Origin: Ostreococcus lucimarinus
Taxonomy: Eukaryota
Strand: one strand, 5' to 3'
Length of the DNA: 64,000 nucleotides
NCBI GenBank assembly: GCA_000092065.1
Contig: CP000596.1
A program made the translations under genes and the position numbers. A model generated the notes under the pieces. It ran no database searches. It had not been told where the DNA came from and saw nothing but the letters and a program-made list of their open reading frames with translations. The number at the start of each line of letters is the position of its first letter. Positions within the stretch are counted from its first letter, which is position 1. Below, piece by piece: positions 40,597-53,791 of the stretch.

Positions 40597-40827
40597 CGCG
40601 CGTCACCGCGTCGCCCCGGCGTCGCGCCGCGCGCGCGTCGCGTCGCGTCGCCGCGCGTCCGCGTCTCGCGCGCCGGTCGGTCGGCGCGCGCGGGCGGCGC
40701 GGTCGGTCGCACACGCATTCAGTCAGACACCACATACACCACACACCACACATGGGCGCACACTTCATAATATACGTCACGCGTATCGTGATAGTCTTAA
40801 TCACATCCACAATGCGTTGACTCGCAC

Positions 40828-40841
40828 GTATATCGATATAC
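40828..40841. promoter_or_regulatory. 14-bp perfect palindrome GTATATCGATATAC in an AT-richer island upstream of HSP70
   Basis: It lies about 110 bp upstream of the HSP70 ATG inside a locally AT-richer stretch (about 40740..40845). TATA-like, possible core promoter. I saw no clear nGAAnnTTCn heat-shock element. Confidence 0.35.
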
Positions 40842-40948
40842 CGATTCCGACGCCGCGCGCCGTCGCGTCGCGTCGCGTCGCGTCGCCGCGGCGCGCCGGC
40901 GCGCCGGCGCGAAGGCGCGGCGTCGGCACAACTTTACGCGCGAGAAAC

Positions 40949-42623
40949 ATGAGCAAGGCCGAGGGACCGGCCATCGGCATCGATTTGGGCACGACGTATT
41001 CATGCGTCGGCGTCTGGCAACACGACAGGTGCGACGCGCGACGCGACGCGACGCCACGGCGACGATCGCATCGCGCGCGGACGGCGCGCGATGGGCGTTT
41101 CGGCGATGCGCGGCGAACGATCGCGGCGCGGGCGCGCGCGATTCGACGCGAACGACGACGGTGACGCGATGGGACGCGAGAAGGAAATATGCGCGAGCGA
41201 ACGGCGGCGCGGGCGCGGGCGACGCGCGGTCGCGCGCGACGGGAGACGCGAGATCGGCGCGCGCCGTCGACACCATCTTTCGAAGCTTCTTGGACGTTCT
41301 CGCGGCTTCGGAGGGCCGTGTGTTGAATTGTATGACGCGGCGAGACGCGCGCGACGTCGGACGTCGGGGGGGGGTCGGGCGATCGCGCGAGGGCGCGCGA
41401 GAGCGCGAGAGCGAAGACTGACGAATGTGTGACGCGTGTGTCTCGTTTGACGCAGGGTGGAGATCATCGCGAACGACCAGGGGGCGCGAACGACGCCGTC
41501 GTACGTGGCGTTTACGGATAGCGAACGCCTGATCGGGGACTCGGCGAAGAATCAAACCGCGATGAACCCGATGAACACGGTTTTCGACGCGAAGCGTTTG
41601 ATTGGACGCAAGTTTTCTGAACCGCAAGTGCAAGCGGACATCAAGGATTGGTCGTTCAAGGTCGAAGCCGGCGAGGCGGACAAGCCGATGATCGTCGTCG
41701 AGTTTCACGGCGAGAAGAAGAAGTTTTCCGCGGAGGAGATTTCTTCCATGGTGCTCGTCAAGATGAAGGAAGTCGCGGAGGCTTACCTCGGTAAGGACAT
41801 TAAGAACGCTGTCGTCACCGTGCCGGCGTACTTCAACGATTCTCAGCGTCAGGCGACCAAGGATGCCGCCGTCATCTCTGGTTTGAACTGCTTGCGCATC
41901 ATCAACGAACCGACCGCCGCGGCGATCGCTTACGGTCTGGACAAGCGCCACGAAGCCAACGGCGCTGAGAAGAACGTTTTGATCTTCGATCTCGGTGGAG
42001 GTACCTTCGATGTGTCTTTGTTGACCATCGAAGAAGGCATCTTCGAAGTCAAGGCGACGGCTGGCGACACGCACTTGGGCGGCGAAGATTTCGACGCTCG
42101 CTTGTTGCAGCACTTCATCGCTGAATTCAAGCGCAAGAACAAGAAGGACATCACGGGCAACCCGAAGGCACTCCGTCGTCTCCGATCTGCTTGCGAACGC
42201 GCCAAGCGTACCTTGTCTTCCACGGCGCAAACGTCCATCGAAATCGATTCCTTGTTCGAAGGCGTCGACTTCTACACTTCCATCACCCGCGCTCGCTTCG
42301 AAGAGCTCTGCATGGATTTGTTCCGCAAGTGCATGGACCCGGTCGAAAAGACGCTTCGCGATGCGAAGATGGACAAGTCGCAAGTTCACGAGGTCGTCCT
42401 CGTCGGCGGATCCACGCGCATCCCCAAGGTGCAACAGCTCTTGTCCGATTTCTTCAACGGCAAGGATTTGTGCAAGTCCATTAACCCCGATGAAGCCGTC
42501 GCCTACGGTGCGGCCGTCCAAGCCGCTATTTTGTCCGGCGAAGGCAACGAAAAGGTGCAAGACTTGCTCTTGCTCGACGTTTCCCCGCTCTCCATGGGTC
42601 TCGAAACCGTCGGCGGCGTGATG

Positions 42624-42655
<32 letters not shown>

Positions 42656-42824
42656 GACAAAGAAGGAACAAGTGTTCTCCACTTACTCCGACAACCAGCC
42701 GGGTGTGTTGATCCAAGTCTTCGAAGGCGAACGCTCCCGTACGCGCGACAACCACTTGTTGGGCAAGTTCGAGCTCTCCGGCATTCCGCCGGCGCCGCGC
42801 GGCGTCCCGCAAATTAACGTTTGC

Positions 42825-42856
<32 letters not shown>

Positions 42857-43328
42857 GTCCGCCGAAGACAAGGGCTCTGGCCAAAAGAACAAGATTACCA
42901 TTACCAACGACAAGGGTCGCTTGAGCAAGGAGGACATCGAGCGCATGGTCCAAGACGCGGAGAAGTACAAGGCTGAGGACGAGGAGCACAAGAAGAAGAT
43001 CGAAGCCAAGAACGCCGTCGAGAACTACGCGTACAACATGCGCAACACCATGAACGACACCAACGTCGGTGGCAAGTTGGATGCGGACGACAAGAAGACG
43101 ATCGAAGACGCCGTCGAGGCCGCGATCACTTGGTTGGACGGTAACCAAACCGCCGAAGTGGACGAGTTCGAGGACAAGCTCAAGGAATTGGAGGGTGTGT
43201 GCAACCCGATCATCAGCAAGATGTACCAAAACGCTAGCGGTGCTCCGGGCGCCGACATGGGTGGTGCTCCGGGTGCTGAAGATGCCGGTGGTGCCTCCTC
43301 TGGCCCGAAGATTGAGGAAGTCGATTAA
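40949..43328 (+). CDS. HSP70: cytosolic heat-shock protein 70, join(40949..41028,41456..43328)
   Basis: Exon 1 [26 protein letters not shown] plus split codon R. Exon 2 [21 protein letters not shown]...[12 protein letters not shown]... ends GPKIEEVD and stop. Joined in phase 2 across a 427-nt GTGCGACGCG...GAAGACTGACGAATG...GACGCAG intron. Confidence 0.9.
41029..41455 (+). other. spliceosomal intron, introner-like (427 nt) inside HSP70 codon 27
   Basis: Exact restoration of the universally conserved HSP70 N-terminus (..[17 protein letters not shown]..). Its composition and 3' module match the other introns of this family. Confidence 0.9.
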
Positions 43329-43500
43329 GTCTTCTCCTCGCGATTCCATTTTTGAGTACTGAAACGAAACGTTGTTCCGCGCCCGTGGCGGAGTTTTAGC
43401 CAGGTTTGCCAGCTTAGGATGCAATCAACACAATATCCATTCACTTAAGTCGCTTCGCTCGTGTCTTCGCACGTTCTTTTTACACAGTCTAATCTCTCGT

Positions 43501-48533: not shown

Positions 48534-50639
48534 TTAGGCGGCGGCGAAACCGAGCGCTTGGGCGATGTCGCGCTCGCTGGCGCTCTCGGCGGCGGCGATG
48601 ATGTCGGCGGCTTCGATCGAGTCGTCCTCGGCGGCGTCTTCGGAATAGATGAGAGAGACGGCGCTGGAGGATTTGGAGTGGCGGCGCGCGGGCGAAGGCG
48701 CGAAGGCGTCCGAAGCGTCGCTTTGATTGCGCTCCAACATTTGAGCATACGAGCCGCGAGTGGCGAAATTGACGGTATTCCAACTTGGGACTCGGCCGCG
48801 GGAACCCATGCGGCCGCGACCGCGGAGGTTTTTGCGGAGGGAGGCGACGCACTCGTCGAGGACGAGTTCGATCCCGCACGCGTGCTCGATGGCGGCGAGT
48901 TGCGGCCAGATTTCTTTCTCGCCCATCGTCGCGGTTTCGAACAAGAACTCGCGCGTGGGATTGCTGGCGATGTGTGAAAATTGCTTCCACGTGTACCACA
49001 TCACCGCCGTGGCGTCGCCCTCCCACTGTTGACCGAAGAGTTTGAAGACATCGAAGACGTCGACGCCCGGAATCAAATCCAACACTTGTCGACAGCGATG
49101 TTTCCACTCGCTCTCGATGAAGTACGCCCAGAGGGCCAGCGCGCTTCCGCGCGATGTAAACCACCTTTTCACTCGCAACAGAGGGACGATGTGCGGATTC
49201 GTCTGCGACACGATGAAGTAATTGCAGTTGAAGAGTTCGCGCAAGTTGTCCATGGGCAGATCCGCCTCGAGACTACCATCGCGCCAGCGTCGCGGTCCGA
49301 GTTTTCCTTCTGGGAGCCACGGCACGAAGGCGCCGCTGCGAGATTTTGCCAACAATGGCTGCGGCGGGAACAACGAGGGAAACGCGCACGACGCCGCGAC
49401 GGCTGACCAAAGCACGACGTGCGGCGACGTGAGATAGTTTAACAGTCTCGGTTTTTCCCCAGTCGTCGTTGCACACACACACACACTCAGTATTCTGCCT
49501 CCACTTCGATCGTATGCCTCTTGAAAAGTCAAGTCGCCGAGTAACGCGCGGAGACAGCGCTGGAAAAAGTCAATGTCGTGCAACGCCCCGGTGCGCAAGT
49601 AGTGCTTCATCGCGCTCATCGAATCGTTGCCGCTGAAGAACGTCAAGTCTGGGAGCAAATCCCAAAAGTGCTCTTCGCTGAAGAACTCATCGAGCTCTTC
49701 CTGCGTGCGACTGCCGATAATGGCGGCGATGATGGAGCCGACAGACGATCCGGCGAGCACGCGCGGGAGCAAATGTTTCCGATTCAACGCGCGCGCGACG
49801 CCGACGTGAAACGTTCCGAGCGTCCCTCCTCCGCTCATCATCAGCGCCGTGCGCCCGAAACAATGTCTCGTCTCTTGCAAAAACACCAGCTTTTCCTGAA
49901 TCGTCACCGTTTCGTCCTGAGCGATGCTAAACAGCTGACTTTTCAGCTCGGCCATGTACTGGCGCACCGCCCGAGGCACCGCCGGCGGCTCGGCGTTCGA
50001 TTTCGAAAACCGCACCTTACAATCGCTCTGCAACGATCCCAAATTCCTCAAAATATCAGCTCTGAGCAAGAACATCATCTCTTCCACGTTCCCACTCGCG
50101 CGCTGCGCCTGCAACTGCCTCAACTGTTCATCGATTAACTCGACGTCGTACGACCTCGACCCGCTTCCCCAACCGTCGCTCCGCGTCGTCGCCCGACCTC
50201 CCGCCTCCGCTCGCGCTTCTTCTTCCGCATCCTCGCGTTCGAGTTCCAACGCCGCGTCTTCAAACGCATCGTACGACGTCGCATCTCGCATTCGCGCTAA
50301 GATTTCCTTTCGTTTGCGTCCGTGTCGCCGTCGCGCCGCCGTCGCCGCCGTCCCGTCGCCTCGCGCCGCGAGATACCCCGTCCTCGTCACCGCCACCGCC
50401 ACCGCGACGCACGCGACGACGCGCGCGTACATTTCGTACTCTTGTCTCATCCATCTCCCGCGTCCGGCGCGGACGTACGCGCCGTACGGCGTCCGCGACG
50501 GCGTCGCGCGCGCGGCTGTCCCCGTCAGCATCAGCATCGGCGACGACGTTTTCACGCTTCGCACCGTCTGCGCCACCGCGCGCGCGACGTCGCGCGCCGC
50601 GGACGCCGCGTAGGACACCCCTTCGTCGAACGCGCCCAT
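48534..50639 (-). CDS. SDP1/TGL4-type patatin-like triacylglycerol lipase (DUF3336 + patatin domain)
   Basis: ATG at 50639 (MGAFDEGVSYAAS..). Oxyanion motif GGGTLGTFHVGVARAL, nucleophile GSSVGSIIAA, and the Asp region are collinear with yeast Tgl3/4/5 and plant SDP1. Confidence 0.75.
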   Translation of the reverse strand: MGAFDEGVSYAASAARDVARAVAQTVRSVKTSSPMLMLTGTAARATPSRTPYGAYVRAGRGRWMRQEYEMYARVVACVAVAVAVTRTGYLAARGDGTAATAARRRHGRKRKEILARMRDATSYDAFEDAALELEREDAEEEARAEAGGRATTRSDGWGSGSRSYDVELIDEQLRQLQAQRASGNVEEMMFLLRADILRNLGSLQSDCKVRFSKSNAEPPAVPRAVRQYMAELKSQLFSIAQDETVTIQEKLVFLQETRHCFGRTALMMSGGGTLGTFHVGVARALNRKHLLPRVLAGSSVGSIIAAIIGSRTQEELDEFFSEEHFWDLLPDLTFFSGNDSMSAMKHYLRTGALHDIDFFQRCLRALLGDLTFQEAYDRSGGRILSVCVCATTTGEKPRLLNYLTSPHVVLWSAVAASCAFPSLFPPQPLLAKSRSGAFVPWLPEGKLGPRRWRDGSLEADLPMDNLRELFNCNYFIVSQTNPHIVPLLRVKRWFTSRGSALALWAYFIESEWKHRCRQVLDLIPGVDVFDVFKLFGQQWEGDATAVMWYTWKQFSHIASNPTREFLFETATMGEKEIWPQLAAIEHACGIELVLDECVASLRKNLRGRGRMGSRGRVPSWNTVNFATRGSYAQMLERNQSDASDAFAPSPARRHSKSSSAVSLIYSEDAAEDDSIEAADIIAAAESASERDIAQALGFAAA

Positions 50640-50850
50640 CGCGCGCGCTCGATTCGCGTCGCGCGACGCGCACTGCGGCGTAATCGCGCCGACGCCGACC
50701 GAAAGTTCGTTACGCGTCGGCACCTCAGACGACGACGCGACGTCGCGCGCCGTTCGCGCGCGCCCGAACGTCGCGCGGCGGTGAGAAGAGACTCGCGCGC
50801 GCGTCGCGAGCGCGCGCGCGACGTCGAACGCGCCGCACCGCGCTCGAACG

Positions 50851-52485
50851 ATGGGAGATTCGCGCGACGTGGCGAATCGGCGGCTGGGACAAATCAACGA
50901 TCACGTCCGCGGCGACGCGAAACGCGCGAACGGAGGCGCGAGAGCGGGCGGTGGCGATGGGTCGGACGCGCGAGCGACGCCGTCGGGGGGCGCGGGGGCG
51001 CTGCACGTGCGAGACTCGCGGACGGGGAAGGAGTATGAAATCGCGGTGTCGAGCGACGGCGCGGTGGACGCGTCGGCGTTTAAACAAATCACCGCGGGCG
51101 GCGATGGACGAGGTTTGGTGATGTACGATCCCGGATACATGAATACGGCGCCGTGTAAGTCGAAGATATCGTACATCGACGGCGAACGGGGGATTTTGAG
51201 GTATCGCGGGTACGCCATCGAGAGCTTGGCGAAATCGTCGACGTATCTGGAGACGGCGTTCGCGTTGGTGTACGGAGATATGCCGAATGCGAGTCAGTTG
51301 ATGGAGTGGGAACGGACGATTGCGAGGCATAGTGCGTTGCCGGTGCAGGTGGTGCACGCGATCGAGGCGTTGCCGCACGACGCGCATCCGATGGCGGTGA
51401 TGCTCGCGGGGTTGAACTCGTTGAGCGCGATGCACCCGGAGCAGAATCCAGCCATCGCGGGTGGGGCGATTTACAACTCTCACACCGTGCAGGATAAACA
51501 AATCGTGCGCATCATCGGCAAAATGACCACGCTCGCCGCGCACGCATATCATCGAAACACCGGGCGCTCGCCGGCGGCGCCGAATACGCGCATGTCGTAC
51601 GCGGAGAATTTCTTGTACATGCTCGACGCCGGTTTGGACGCGCGGCATCGACCGCATCCGAAGCTCGCGAAGGCGCTGGACGTGATGTTTTTACTACACG
51701 CGGAGCACGAGATGAACTGTAGCACGGCGGCGTGCAGACACTTGGCATCGAGCGGGGTGGACGTGTTTTGCGCCGTGGCGGGCGCGGTGGGCGCGCTTTA
51801 CGGGCCTCTGCACGGCGGCGCCAACGAAGCAGTGCTCAAGATGCTCGAACGGATCGGAAGCGTCGATAACATCCCGAGCTTTTTGGCCGGGGTGAAGGAA
51901 AAGCGATACGTGATGTTTGGTTTCGGACACCGCGTTTACAAGAACTTTGATCCTCGCGCGAAGATTATTCGCGACATCGCGAACGACGTCTTCGAGCTCG
52001 TCGGACGCGACCCGTTGATCGACATCGCCATCGAGCTCGAGAAGGCGGCGCGGGCGGACGAATACTTCGTCAAGCGTAAGCTTTACCCGAATGTAGACTT
52101 CTACAGCGGGCTGGTGTATCGCGCCATGGGGTTTCCCCCCGAATTTTTCACCGTGCTCTTCGCCATCCCGCGCGCGACGGGTTATCTTGCGCACTGGCGC
52201 GAGAGCTTAACGGACGCCGACAAGAAAATCATGCGCCCGCAGCAAATTTACCAAGGCGAATGGTTGCGAGATTACGAACCGATCGCCGCGCGCTCGCGCT
52301 CGCTCACCGACGCCATGGAGGATATTCAACCATCCAACGCGGCGCGGCGCCGCATGGCTGGAGACCCGCCATCCGGCACGGCGTGGGTCGGGAAAGGCGT
52401 GGAAATGTCCACGCCGGCGTGGCAGTCGGGCGCGTCAGTCGGCGACGCGACGAGCGGCGTGGAGAACTATCTCGGACGAAAATGA
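50851..52485 (+). CDS. citrate synthase, peroxisomal/glyoxysomal type (PTS2-like N-terminus)
   Basis: [27 protein letters not shown] and other citrate-synthase signatures. The N-terminal [19 protein letters not shown] resembles a PTS2 nonapeptide (R-L-x5-H-V/L). Confidence 0.85.
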
Positions 52486-52533
52486 ATTTACTGTAAATAC
52501 TACACACACACATTTCTCGCTTAAAAGTATCCG

Positions 52534-53508
52534 TCAACGGTGACCCCTATCGATGCACTCTCGAGTGCCGAAGATGTTCGTCCGCCACCTCAAGCACGGC
52601 GCCGTTCCTCCGTTGATGGCGACCGTCCTCGACAGATACATTCGCTCGCGCGCCCGGCGCGGATCGCACAAACCGCTTTGCAGTTCGAACTCAGTGCAAA
52701 ACTGATAGACTTCCTCGAGATCAGGCTGACAGTACGGCCAAGACAGCGGCGCGTTCATTCTCGAAATTCTTTCGCGGTACCACGAACCTCGATTTTCGTA
52801 AGTGCATCGTCGGAGCACCTCCTCGACCGAACACGGTCTCACGAGCGTCGCGCACCGCATGTAATCGTCCAGAGCGGTCGGATTCCCTGGAAAGATTGTG
52901 GAGAACCACGTGAGCTGCTGCATCAACCTACCAATCTCTCCTTGCGGCTCGAACATCACGCGCGAACCGTCCGCGTCGTACACGACGTACGCCTCGTTCG
53001 TAAACGCGACGAAATCAACCGGCGGGTACGCCGCGTCACCGACCCACGTCATCTCCAGCGCTCGCGCGTTCGCGATCCTCTCGAGATCGCTCTGAATGTC
53101 GTACGCGATCTCATCGAGCGTCTCGCGCATCGCGCCCGCGTCGGACGCGCTCGCCGACTCGATCAGGCTCAGCTCGAGCTTCGCCACCTCGCGTTCGACG
53201 TACTCGTCGTAGGACATCGTTCGCGCGCCCGAGTCGACGCCATCGCTCGCGCGCGCGAACTCGTCGTACCATCCCTCTCGCGCGTACCGCGCCTCGCCGT
53301 CGCCGTCGCCGTCGCTGTCGTAGCCGTAATCGTAATCGTAATCGTCGTCGCCCTCGTTTTTGCGAACCGTCGGCGTCGTCGCCTCGGGCGGTTGTTCGAA
53401 CACGCGCACCGTTCGCGACCGCGCGGCGACGGAATCGAGCGCGGACGCCTCCGCGAGCTCGCGCCCCAGCTCGGCCGCGATCGCGAGCGCCGCGAGCGCG
53501 CGTCGCAT
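52534..53508 (-). CDS. hypothetical protein with a signal-peptide-like N-terminus and an acidic Tyr-rich stretch
   Basis: ATG at 53508 (MRRALAALAIAAELG..). Contains GDDDYDYDYGYDSDGDGDGE and a Cys-containing C-terminal half. No family recognised. Confidence 0.4.
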   Translation of the reverse strand: MRRALAALAIAAELGRELAEASALDSVAARSRTVRVFEQPPEATTPTVRKNEGDDDYDYDYGYDSDGDGDGEARYAREGWYDEFARASDGVDSGARTMSYDEYVEREVAKLELSLIESASASDAGAMRETLDEIAYDIQSDLERIANARALEMTWVGDAAYPPVDFVAFTNEAYVVYDADGSRVMFEPQGEIGRLMQQLTWFSTIFPGNPTALDDYMRCATLVRPCSVEEVLRRCTYENRGSWYRERISRMNAPLSWPYCQPDLEEVYQFCTEFELQSGLCDPRRARERMYLSRTVAINGGTAPCLRWRTNIFGTRECIDRGHR

Positions 53509-53791
53509 CGGCGCGACGCCGAGTGCGGCGGAGGCGAAGCGGCGTTTCGCCTCGCCTCGCGTCGACGAACACACCAACAGACGAATCATCCCTCTTCACT
53601 GTATGCACACACCCGCATGTCCGACCAAAAGCAACATTTCGACGCACGCCTCTATTTCATATACCGCAAAATCGCGCTCGAATGCGATACACGCGCGCGA
53701 TAAACCCGCGCCGCGCGGATAACGCGACGCCGCCGACCGGCGCCGACGGCGCGCACAACGCCGCGCCTCGGATACCGCCGCGCCCGCGACG

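Follow-up and report, generated by a model that had tools for sequence, protein, structure and literature searches.

The systems closest to the locus described here are known from plants, yeast and mammals. (i) The triacylglycerol (TAG) lipases SDP1 and SDP1-L of Arabidopsis and Tgl3/4/5 of yeast carry a DUF3336 domain followed by a patatin domain, with a GGGxxG oxyanion motif, a GxSxG serine and a DG[SAG] aspartate. (ii) The peroxisomal citrate synthases, i.e., CSY2 and CSY3 (PDB 9x0i) of Arabidopsis and gCS of pumpkin, are bacterial-like enzymes with a targeting nonapeptide in their presequence. In plants, the products of the lipase and of the citrate synthase belong to one pathway. (iii) Bidirectional promoters, described in yeast, mammals and plants, separate head-to-head genes whose ATGs are <1 kb apart, by a CpG-rich spacer devoid of TATA box.

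These features are found again in the window, i.e., the whole stretch of 64,000 nucleotides of Ostreococcus lucimarinus DNA (contig CP000596.1) that was analysed. The lipase has the same order of domains and the same three motifs, the citrate synthase is of the same bacterial-like type with its nonapeptide equally distant from the catalytic domain, and the two genes are placed head-to-head on either side of a spacer of the kind just described. The favoured reading (probability of about 0.7) is that of two ordinary single-exon nuclear genes, neighbours on opposite strands, with a synthase imported into the peroxisome by a type 2 signal (PTS2), a microsynteny at the level of the gene block in Mamiellales and no dedicated regulatory device.

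The gene calls are correct and the arrangement is ordinary for a compact genome. The coordinates of the pair are exact according to ORF analysis (Table 1), and the divergent genes that the preliminary description had placed about 210 bp apart are indeed separated by 211 bp from ATG to ATG. No alternative in-frame start exists between the preceding stop and the synthase ATG (50851). No RNA gene was detected between 46 and 55 kb with Rfam and a tRNA scan. Since the genome is very compact, both core promoters are necessarily located in the 211-bp spacer, which must hold both 5' UTRs as well.

Table 1. Features of the lipase/citrate synthase locus (positions are those of the window; aa, residues of the corresponding protein).
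Feature	Position	Strand	Remarks
SDP1/Tgl-type patatin-like lipase CDS	48534..50639	-	701 aa + stop, apparently one exon; first ATG at 50639 (plus-strand CAT at 50637-50639), ORF end at 48534; ORF, Pfam, homologs
Hydrophobic segment VVACVAVAVAV	50388..50420	-	aa 74-84, poorly conserved N-terminal region of lipase
DUF3336 domain	49863..50318	-	aa 108-259, typical of SDP1/Tgl3-5 class; Pfam
Patatin domain	49251..49844	-	aa 266-463; Pfam
Gly-rich oxyanion motif GGGTLG	49815-49832	-	aa 270-275, in Patatin domain
Nucleophile motif GSSVG (GxSxG)	49737-49751	-	aa 297-301, in Patatin domain
Asp motif DGS	49272-49280	-	aa 454-456, in Patatin domain
Inter-ATG spacer	50640..50850		211 bp, 75% G+C, CpG-rich, without TATA-like run
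Palindromic CGCGACGTCGCGCGCCG element	50736..50752		in spacer
Further copy of CGCGACGTCGCGCGCCG element	50583-50599		within lipase CDS
Further copy of CGCGACGTCGCGCGCCG element	50814-50826
Plant-type (bacterial-like, peroxisomal-class) citrate synthase CDS	50851..52485	+	544 aa + stop; ORF, Pfam, homologs
PTS2-like nonapeptide RLGQINDHV	50881..50907	+	aa 11-19; alignment with plant orthologs
Citrate_synt domain	51133..52242	+	aa 95-464; Pfam
Catalytic-site motif LHAEHE	51694-51711	+	synthase
Catalytic-site motif GFGHRVY	51919-51939	+	synthase
Catalytic-site motif NVDFYSG	52090-52110	+	synthase
C-terminal extension, Mamiellales-specific	52363..52482	+	aa 505-544, ending in conserved ...GDATSGVE motif

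The two Pfam matches of the lipase, Patatin (PF01734, 1.5e-25) and DUF3336 (PF11815, 1.3e-15), both exceed the gathering score. The catalytic Ser/Asp dyad and the Gly-rich oxyanion motif are intact (GGGxxG / GxSxG / DGS). Proteins named «Triacylglycerol lipase SDP1» are 41-46% identical to it, in alignments that cover 66-83% of its length (E-values of 1e-119 to 1e-139). The former assignment to the SDP1 class is confirmed by these domains, motifs and identities. The enzyme would catalyze the first hydrolysis of lipid-droplet triacylglycerol. Unlike plant SDP1 (about 820-850 aa) the lipase is shorter, and unlike SDP1/Tgl its N-terminal 100 aa are lineage-specific and include the hydrophobic segment, which may be a membrane anchor.

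The synthase matches Citrate_synt (PF00285) with 431 bits and contains all the catalytic His/His/Asp motifs. Among PDB entries, the top score is that of Arabidopsis «Citrate synthase 3, peroxisomal» (CSY3, 9x0i; 673 bits, aa 37-505), vs. 97 bits only for «Citrate synthase 4, mitochondrial» (CSY4, 6k5v). In the same manner, the NCBIfam score is 437 bits with cit_synth_I vs. 101 bits with cit_synth_euk. A mitochondrial isoform was rejected on the basis of these two pairs of scores: the synthase does not group with the mitochondrial isoforms; such a grouping would have contradicted the preliminary description. The top named homologs, from plants and green algae, are peroxisomal or glyoxysomal citrate synthases (59-66% identity), so that the peroxisomal type, which had been proposed earlier, agrees with PDB, NCBIfam and named homologs alike. 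The protein is probably the green-lineage peroxisomal isoform; in the peroxisome it would condense the acetyl-CoA derived from beta-oxidation with oxaloacetate. The activities of both enzymes are predicted.

The N-terminus of the synthase had also been said to resemble a PTS2. The nonapeptide RLGQINDHV matches the PTS2 of the plant orthologs (RLAVLSGHL / RLAVLSAHL) column for column, and 43 aa separate it from the D-x-RTG anchor located downstream. A PTS2-type nonapeptide is present in 82 of the 88 homologs with a full N-terminus (62 of them canonical), and in most of these 82 orthologs the distance to D-x-RTG is 40-49 aa. Within the first 50 aa, such a motif occurs in only one of the 76 long ORFs of the window. 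The consensus used for comparison was [RK][LVI]x5[HQ][LAF], position 5 being hydrophobic (PMC7710942): positions 1, 2, 5 and 8 fit, and two residues, Val (position 9) and Asn (position 6), fall outside the published consensus. The resemblance thus stands as far as positional homology to canonical plant PTS2 is concerned, and does not extend to these two residues. Unlike plant peroxisomal synthases, whose nonapeptide ends with His-Leu, that of the window ends with His-Val and has Asn at position 6; unlike plant PTS2 proteins, the synthase has no Cys processing site downstream of the signal (its first Cys is residue 102). This site is required for cleavage, not for import. It is missing too in some plant orthologs, e.g., Selaginella.

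These departures from the consensus may be read otherwise, i.e., the nonapeptide would be a decayed relic and the synthase, not imported into the peroxisome (cytosolic or elsewhere), would have a weaker pathway link to the lipase than in plants. The absence of the Cys site and of a C-terminal PTS1 (the protein ends with ...NYLGRK) goes in the same direction as Val 9 and Asn 6. So does the Bathycoccus clade, in which His/Gln at position 8 is lost. Moreover, unlike plant peroxisomal synthases, the protein has an extra C-terminal extension of 40 aa, conserved in Mamiellales only, which suggests an altered biology. Such a relic is nevertheless improbable in view of the conservation of the motif. 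All Ostreococcus- and Micromonas-like orthologs retain positions 1, 2, 5, 8 and 9 (Val being found at position 9 in all those examined) within an N-terminal extension that is otherwise unconserved, indicating purifying selection on the signal; across 14 aligned sequences, Arg at position 1 is invariant and the flanks are unconserved. HV and HI endings are also observed among land-plant and other algal orthologs, and RLx5HV has been proposed elsewhere, as yet unvalidated, as a likely functional PTS2 variant (PMC7710942). The PEX7 pathway is, by implication, retained in O. tauri (PMC8172628), and the acidic residues of the presequence speak against a mitochondrial transit peptide. RLGQINDHV is thus a plausible PTS2. 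In the favoured reading of a peroxisomal synthase, the protein would most likely be imported by PEX7 through this N-terminal signal, in a lineage form R-[LV]-x2-[IVL]-x2-[HQ]-V.

The ATGs are so close (211 bp) that hardly any distance can remain between the two core promoters, as would be the case if the spacer were a genuine bidirectional promoter maintained by selection and co-inducing an initial (TAG lipolysis) and a late (peroxisomal citrate synthesis) step in the mobilisation of storage lipids (e.g., at night or upon nutrient resupply). A functional link between the lipase and the synthase is documented in Arabidopsis, where the surface of the peroxisome is the initial location of SDP1 (PMC10671748). 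It is therefore conceivable that, for two products of one pathway, linkage or co-expression is under selection. The geometric definition of a bidirectional promoter (starts <1 kb apart; 211 bp here, measured between ATGs) fits, however, nearly every divergent pair of this genome. Between 46 and 63 kb, the genes of the window that are supported by Pfam or synteny include three divergent adjacent pairs, whose spacers measure 42, 202 and 211 bp, and a relative (L001) contains three such pairs in 17.6 kb (265, 344 and 428 bp). Spacers of about 200 bp are the norm for divergent genes in this genome, and the head-to-head geometry of lipase and synthase does not exceed chance expectation. It has been reported that Ostreococcus intergenic regions are <200 bp and that bidirectional regulatory elements are rarer there than in yeast (PMC2850359), the latter point arguing against such a promoter.

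Conservation of the arrangement in related genomes, which was suggested as a check, is observed in all the Mamiellales loci examined. The pair is head-to-head in 9 of 9 independent arrangements, i.e., 13 loci (L001-L004, L009/L010, L014, L015, L016, L007, L012 and, for Bathycoccus, L005/L006), and the adjacency persists at protein identities down to 64-70%. This would favour a promoter maintained by selection. However, the flanking Snf7, eIF-4B, Pterin_4a and tRNase Z genes are kept in the same order, so that the lipase/synthase pair is not singled out: a whole block of six to seven genes is syntenic, and the adjacency is conserved no better than its surroundings. Moreover, the lipase and the synthase are not neighbours in Chloropicon, Coccomyxa and Auxenochlorella. 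The gene upstream in Klebsormidium encodes a same-strand protein of 2373 aa with no Pfam match, and downstream the contig ends before any called gene. The head-to-head pair is an ancestral Mamiellales microsynteny, retained along with its neighbours.

In the sequence of the spacer, unlike the bidirectional promoters of co-expressed pairs, no conserved shared element was found. The orthologous spacers range from 211 to 636 bp, and a MAFFT alignment of six Ostreococcus-like spacers was possible for the closest pair only (L009/L014). The k-mers common to nine orthologous spacers are all CpG strings, which are equally dense in the other divergent spacers of the window; no non-generic conserved motif was found by either approach. 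A local cluster of palindromic CGACGTCG elements (ACGT core), with 3 of the 26 copies of the 64 kb grouped around the spacer, would favour a bidirectional promoter. As a lead towards a bZIP C-box it was nevertheless rejected as conserved regulation: about 1% of all 340-bp windows equal its GACGTC count, and the cluster, absent from the orthologous spacers, is specific to the window.

The coupling through a shared spacer that was put forward in the preliminary description is not supported, given a typical length, a synteny extending to the whole block, an absence outside Mamiellales and the lack of a non-generic shared motif. We infer that no special co-regulation operates, and a spacer selected for co-induction is considered unlikely. 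The more elaborate version, i.e., a Mamiellales lipid-mobilisation module maintained by selection, in which the bidirectional CpG-rich spacer would ensure stoichiometric co-induction of lipolysis and acetyl-unit export, with a His-Val PTS2 consensus, is doubtful as well. If co-regulation were true, this ecologically dominant picoalga would possess a compact natural dual-output promoter by which lipolysis is tied to the export of carbon from peroxisomes; lipid engineering in algae and research on pathway organisation in compact genomes would both benefit. More modestly, and without surprise for specialists, (i) the peroxisomal citrate synthase of plant type is retained in Mamiellales, where its PTS2 variant ending with His-Val is conserved; (ii) this type of signal is apparently degraded in Bathycoccus; (iii) the microsynteny of the lipase/synthase block is now documented for the whole order.

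In O. tauri, the counterpart of the window synthase is ostta17g02090 (chromosome 17, 355222-356814). Among the entries examined from O. tauri diel and infection studies (PMC2850359, PMC8484446, PMC10540734 and PMC5790953), this protein was found and its lipase neighbour was not. A distinct citrate synthase of this species, ostta05g01760, is of the mitochondrial type.

The SDP1-type patatin gene (hereafter, the lipase) and the citrate synthase gene (the synthase) lie head-to-head, in a window of 63% G+C where ORFs are tightly packed and mostly without introns. The coordinates proposed for both genes in the preliminary description are exact, since ORF ends and first ATGs match, and domains, catalytic motifs and named homologs show the two identities to be correct. 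Both genes are further members of already known families, in an arrangement of known kind.

Coordinates of the gene pair and associated features (window positions unless a relative's locus is named)
Feature	Position	Strand	Detail
Lipase ORF	48534-50639	minus	first ATG 50639; 701 aa
Lipase frame with its upstream open part	48534-50897	minus	
(CA)n/(TG)n run in lipase	49470-49486	minus	
Spacer between start codons	50640-50850		211 bp; 75% G+C
Synthase ORF	50851-52485	plus	ATG 50851; stop 52485; 544 aa
Nonapeptide RLGQINDHV	50881-50907		synthase residues 11-19
Synthase C-terminal extension	52363-52482	plus	aa 505-544
Second (CA)n/(TG)n run	52500-52512		directly past synthase stop codon
Gene without Pfam match	52534-53589		
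850-aa antisense ORF	40797-43349	minus	PF10712, 2.8e-131
Long ORF opposite it	41457-43328	plus	
Bathycoccus prasinos synthase	L005/L006 8001-9683		
Bathycoccus copper amine oxidase	L005 9782-13537	minus	

The lipase contains the Pfam domains DUF3336 (aa 108-259) and then Patatin (aa 266-463), the domain order of the SDP1/Tgl3-5 class. All motifs are intact, i.e., the Gly-rich GGGTLG, the nucleophile GSSVG and the Asp DGS, and beyond Mamiellales the top named matches come from many plants and carry the name «Triacylglycerol lipase SDP1» (41-46% identity). From its sequence, we infer that the protein is probably active as a lipase. The N-terminal ~100 aa are weakly conserved, with a hydrophobic stretch, and the start is called differently among relatives (688-793 aa). 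The window start MGAFDEG aligns with MGALERA of a relative, thus ATG 50639 is reasonable. Upstream of this ATG the frame stays open for another 258 nt, across the entire spacer and into the strand opposite the synthase start; this effect of the high GC leads some gene callers to predict too long an N-terminus (793 aa in L010 and, in L014, a GTG start; both are other Ostreococcus-like loci). The (CA)n/(TG)n run of the lipase encodes a conserved ...SVCVCATT... segment; a second, short run follows the synthase. Elsewhere in the window, an 850-aa ORF matches «NAD-specific glutamate dehydrogenase»; it is antisense to a long ORF where relatives encode HSP70, and we take it to be an antisense-of-HSP70 artefact and no real gene.

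The synthase does not group with mitochondrial isoforms, in agreement with the peroxisomal form proposed earlier. This follows from: (i) its top solved-structure match, Arabidopsis «Citrate synthase 3, peroxisomal» (9x0i, 673 bits, aa 37-505), vs. 97 bits for «Citrate synthase 4, mitochondrial» (6k5v); (ii) the NCBIfam scores, i.e., 437 bits for cit_synth_I (bacterial-type) vs. 101 bits for cit_synth_euk; (iii) its named homologs at 59-66% identity, which are peroxisomal/glyoxysomal enzymes of plants and green algae; (iv) the presence in O. tauri of a further citrate synthase, ostta05g01760, which is of mitochondrial type. Its sequence nearly equals that of a metagenomic protein (identity listed as 100%, two residues differing by eye), and is 83-85% identical to several clusters, one with Ostreococcus mediterraneus sequences, and 68% identical to the Bathycoccus prasinos ortholog. 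These identities place the window in a Mamiellales picoalga, most probably in an Ostreococcus species. The O. tauri protein, probably ostta17g02090 (chromosome 17), is among the proteins detected in a diel proteome. In Mamiellales, citrate synthases have a C-terminal extension of 40-90 aa, absent from plant and core-chlorophyte orthologs, with the conserved end motif P-A-[WF]-x-[SG]-G-x-x-[VA]-G-[DE]-x-[TS]-S-G-[VI]-[ED].

The resemblance of the synthase N-terminus to a PTS2 stands as homology (alignment and position) but not as canonical form. Compared with the stringent consensus [RK]-[LVI]-x5-[HQ]-[LAF], with a hydrophobic position 5 (PMC7710942), the nonapeptide matches at positions 1, 2, 5 and 8; Val at position 9 lies outside. 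Among the best 120 homologs, the conserved D-x-RTG anchor is preceded by 40 residues or more in 88; the canonical nonapeptide is found in 62 of these and a slightly relaxed form in 82, mostly 40-49 residues ahead of the anchor (43 in the window). In the HMMER alignment the region pairs with LARARLAVLSGHL of the plant-type enzyme 8qzp. With MAFFT, the nonapeptides of 14 orthologs form one block with an invariant Arg at position 1, in an unconserved presequence. The last two residues of the nonapeptide are [HQ]-V in all Ostreococcus- and Micromonas-like orthologs, and HV or HI in a few plant and algal ones. Only 1 of 76 long ORFs of the window has a PTS2-type motif in its first 50 residues. RLx5HV has been proposed as a probable, still unvalidated functional variant in another lineage (PMC7710942), and a published statement implies that the PTS2 receptor exists in Ostreococcus (PMC8172628). 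On the negative side, the synthase has no PTS1, and its presequence no Cys-containing processing site (first Cys at residue 102). On balance, the N-terminus probably carries a functional, lineage-specific PTS2 (probability about 0.7). In the Bathycoccus clade (P0017, P0021, P0022), His/Gln at position 8 is replaced by Ser/Thr (RVAHFSRTV, RVEHLSRSV, RVANLSRTL), thus the signal looks degraded, which suggests that targeting may be weakened or lost in Bathycoccus.

The length of the spacer is typical. Other divergent pairs of the window are separated by 42 and 202 bp, those of L001 (a contig of the 85% relative) by 265, 344 and 428 bp, and Ostreococcus intergenic regions are <200 bp (PMC2850359). 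Orthologous spacers (211-636 bp) are alignable solely between the two closest relatives. The k-mers common to most of them are of the CGCGCG or GACGCG type, and the window's other divergent spacers hold them at equal or higher density. Scans for RNA families and tRNAs found none in the region. The palindrome CGACGTCG has 3 of its 26 copies in the 64 kb clustered here (50585, 50738, 50819). CGCGACGTCGCGCG-type palindromic repeats with an ACGT core straddle both start codons (50583-50599, 50736-50752, 50814-50826, 50861-50874), and two of the three exact 14-mers of this type in the window are at this locus. The cluster was not found in orthologous spacers; it is a local peculiarity of the window.

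All Mamiellales loci retrieved share the head-to-head arrangement. It is conserved in four contigs of the 85% relative (spacer 265 bp), the 84% relative, three more Ostreococcus-like lineages, one lineage with a synthase identity of 70%, another with a lipase identity of 64%, and two Bathycoccus prasinos assemblies. Flanking genes are kept in all of them as in the window (Snf7 and eIF-4B on the lipase side, Pterin_4a and tRNase Z on the synthase side), thus the pair is part of a six-to-seven-gene syntenic block. In Chloropicon primus the lipase lies among unrelated genes, the synthase not being its neighbour; in Coccomyxa viridis Med8 and a WD40 gene flank the synthase, with the SDP1 homolog on a different contig; in Auxenochlorella the synthase lies between a kinase and STT3, without lipase neighbour. 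In Klebsormidium, a 2373-aa same-strand protein without Pfam match lies upstream of the synthase, and downstream the contig ends before any called gene.

In Arabidopsis, SDP1, at first located on the peroxisome surface, starts the hydrolysis of TAG in lipid droplets, and the glyoxylate-cycle enzymes that follow beta-oxidation in the peroxisome include citrate synthase (PMC10671748). By analogy, the products of both genes plausibly belong to a single pathway in the alga as well. A coupling of the two steps in storage-lipid breakdown by the shared spacer, as previously proposed, is improbable: its length is ordinary, the flanking genes are equally kept, the shared k-mers are generic and the palindromes window-only. 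The arrangement is truly conserved; its best explanation is microsynteny of the ordinary kind, in a genome that is very compact.

In Bathycoccus, a copper amine oxidase gene, whose plant counterpart encodes a peroxisomal enzyme, lies directly downstream of the synthase. Ostreococcus-like genomes have at this position a gene without Pfam match, coding for 334-351 aa.
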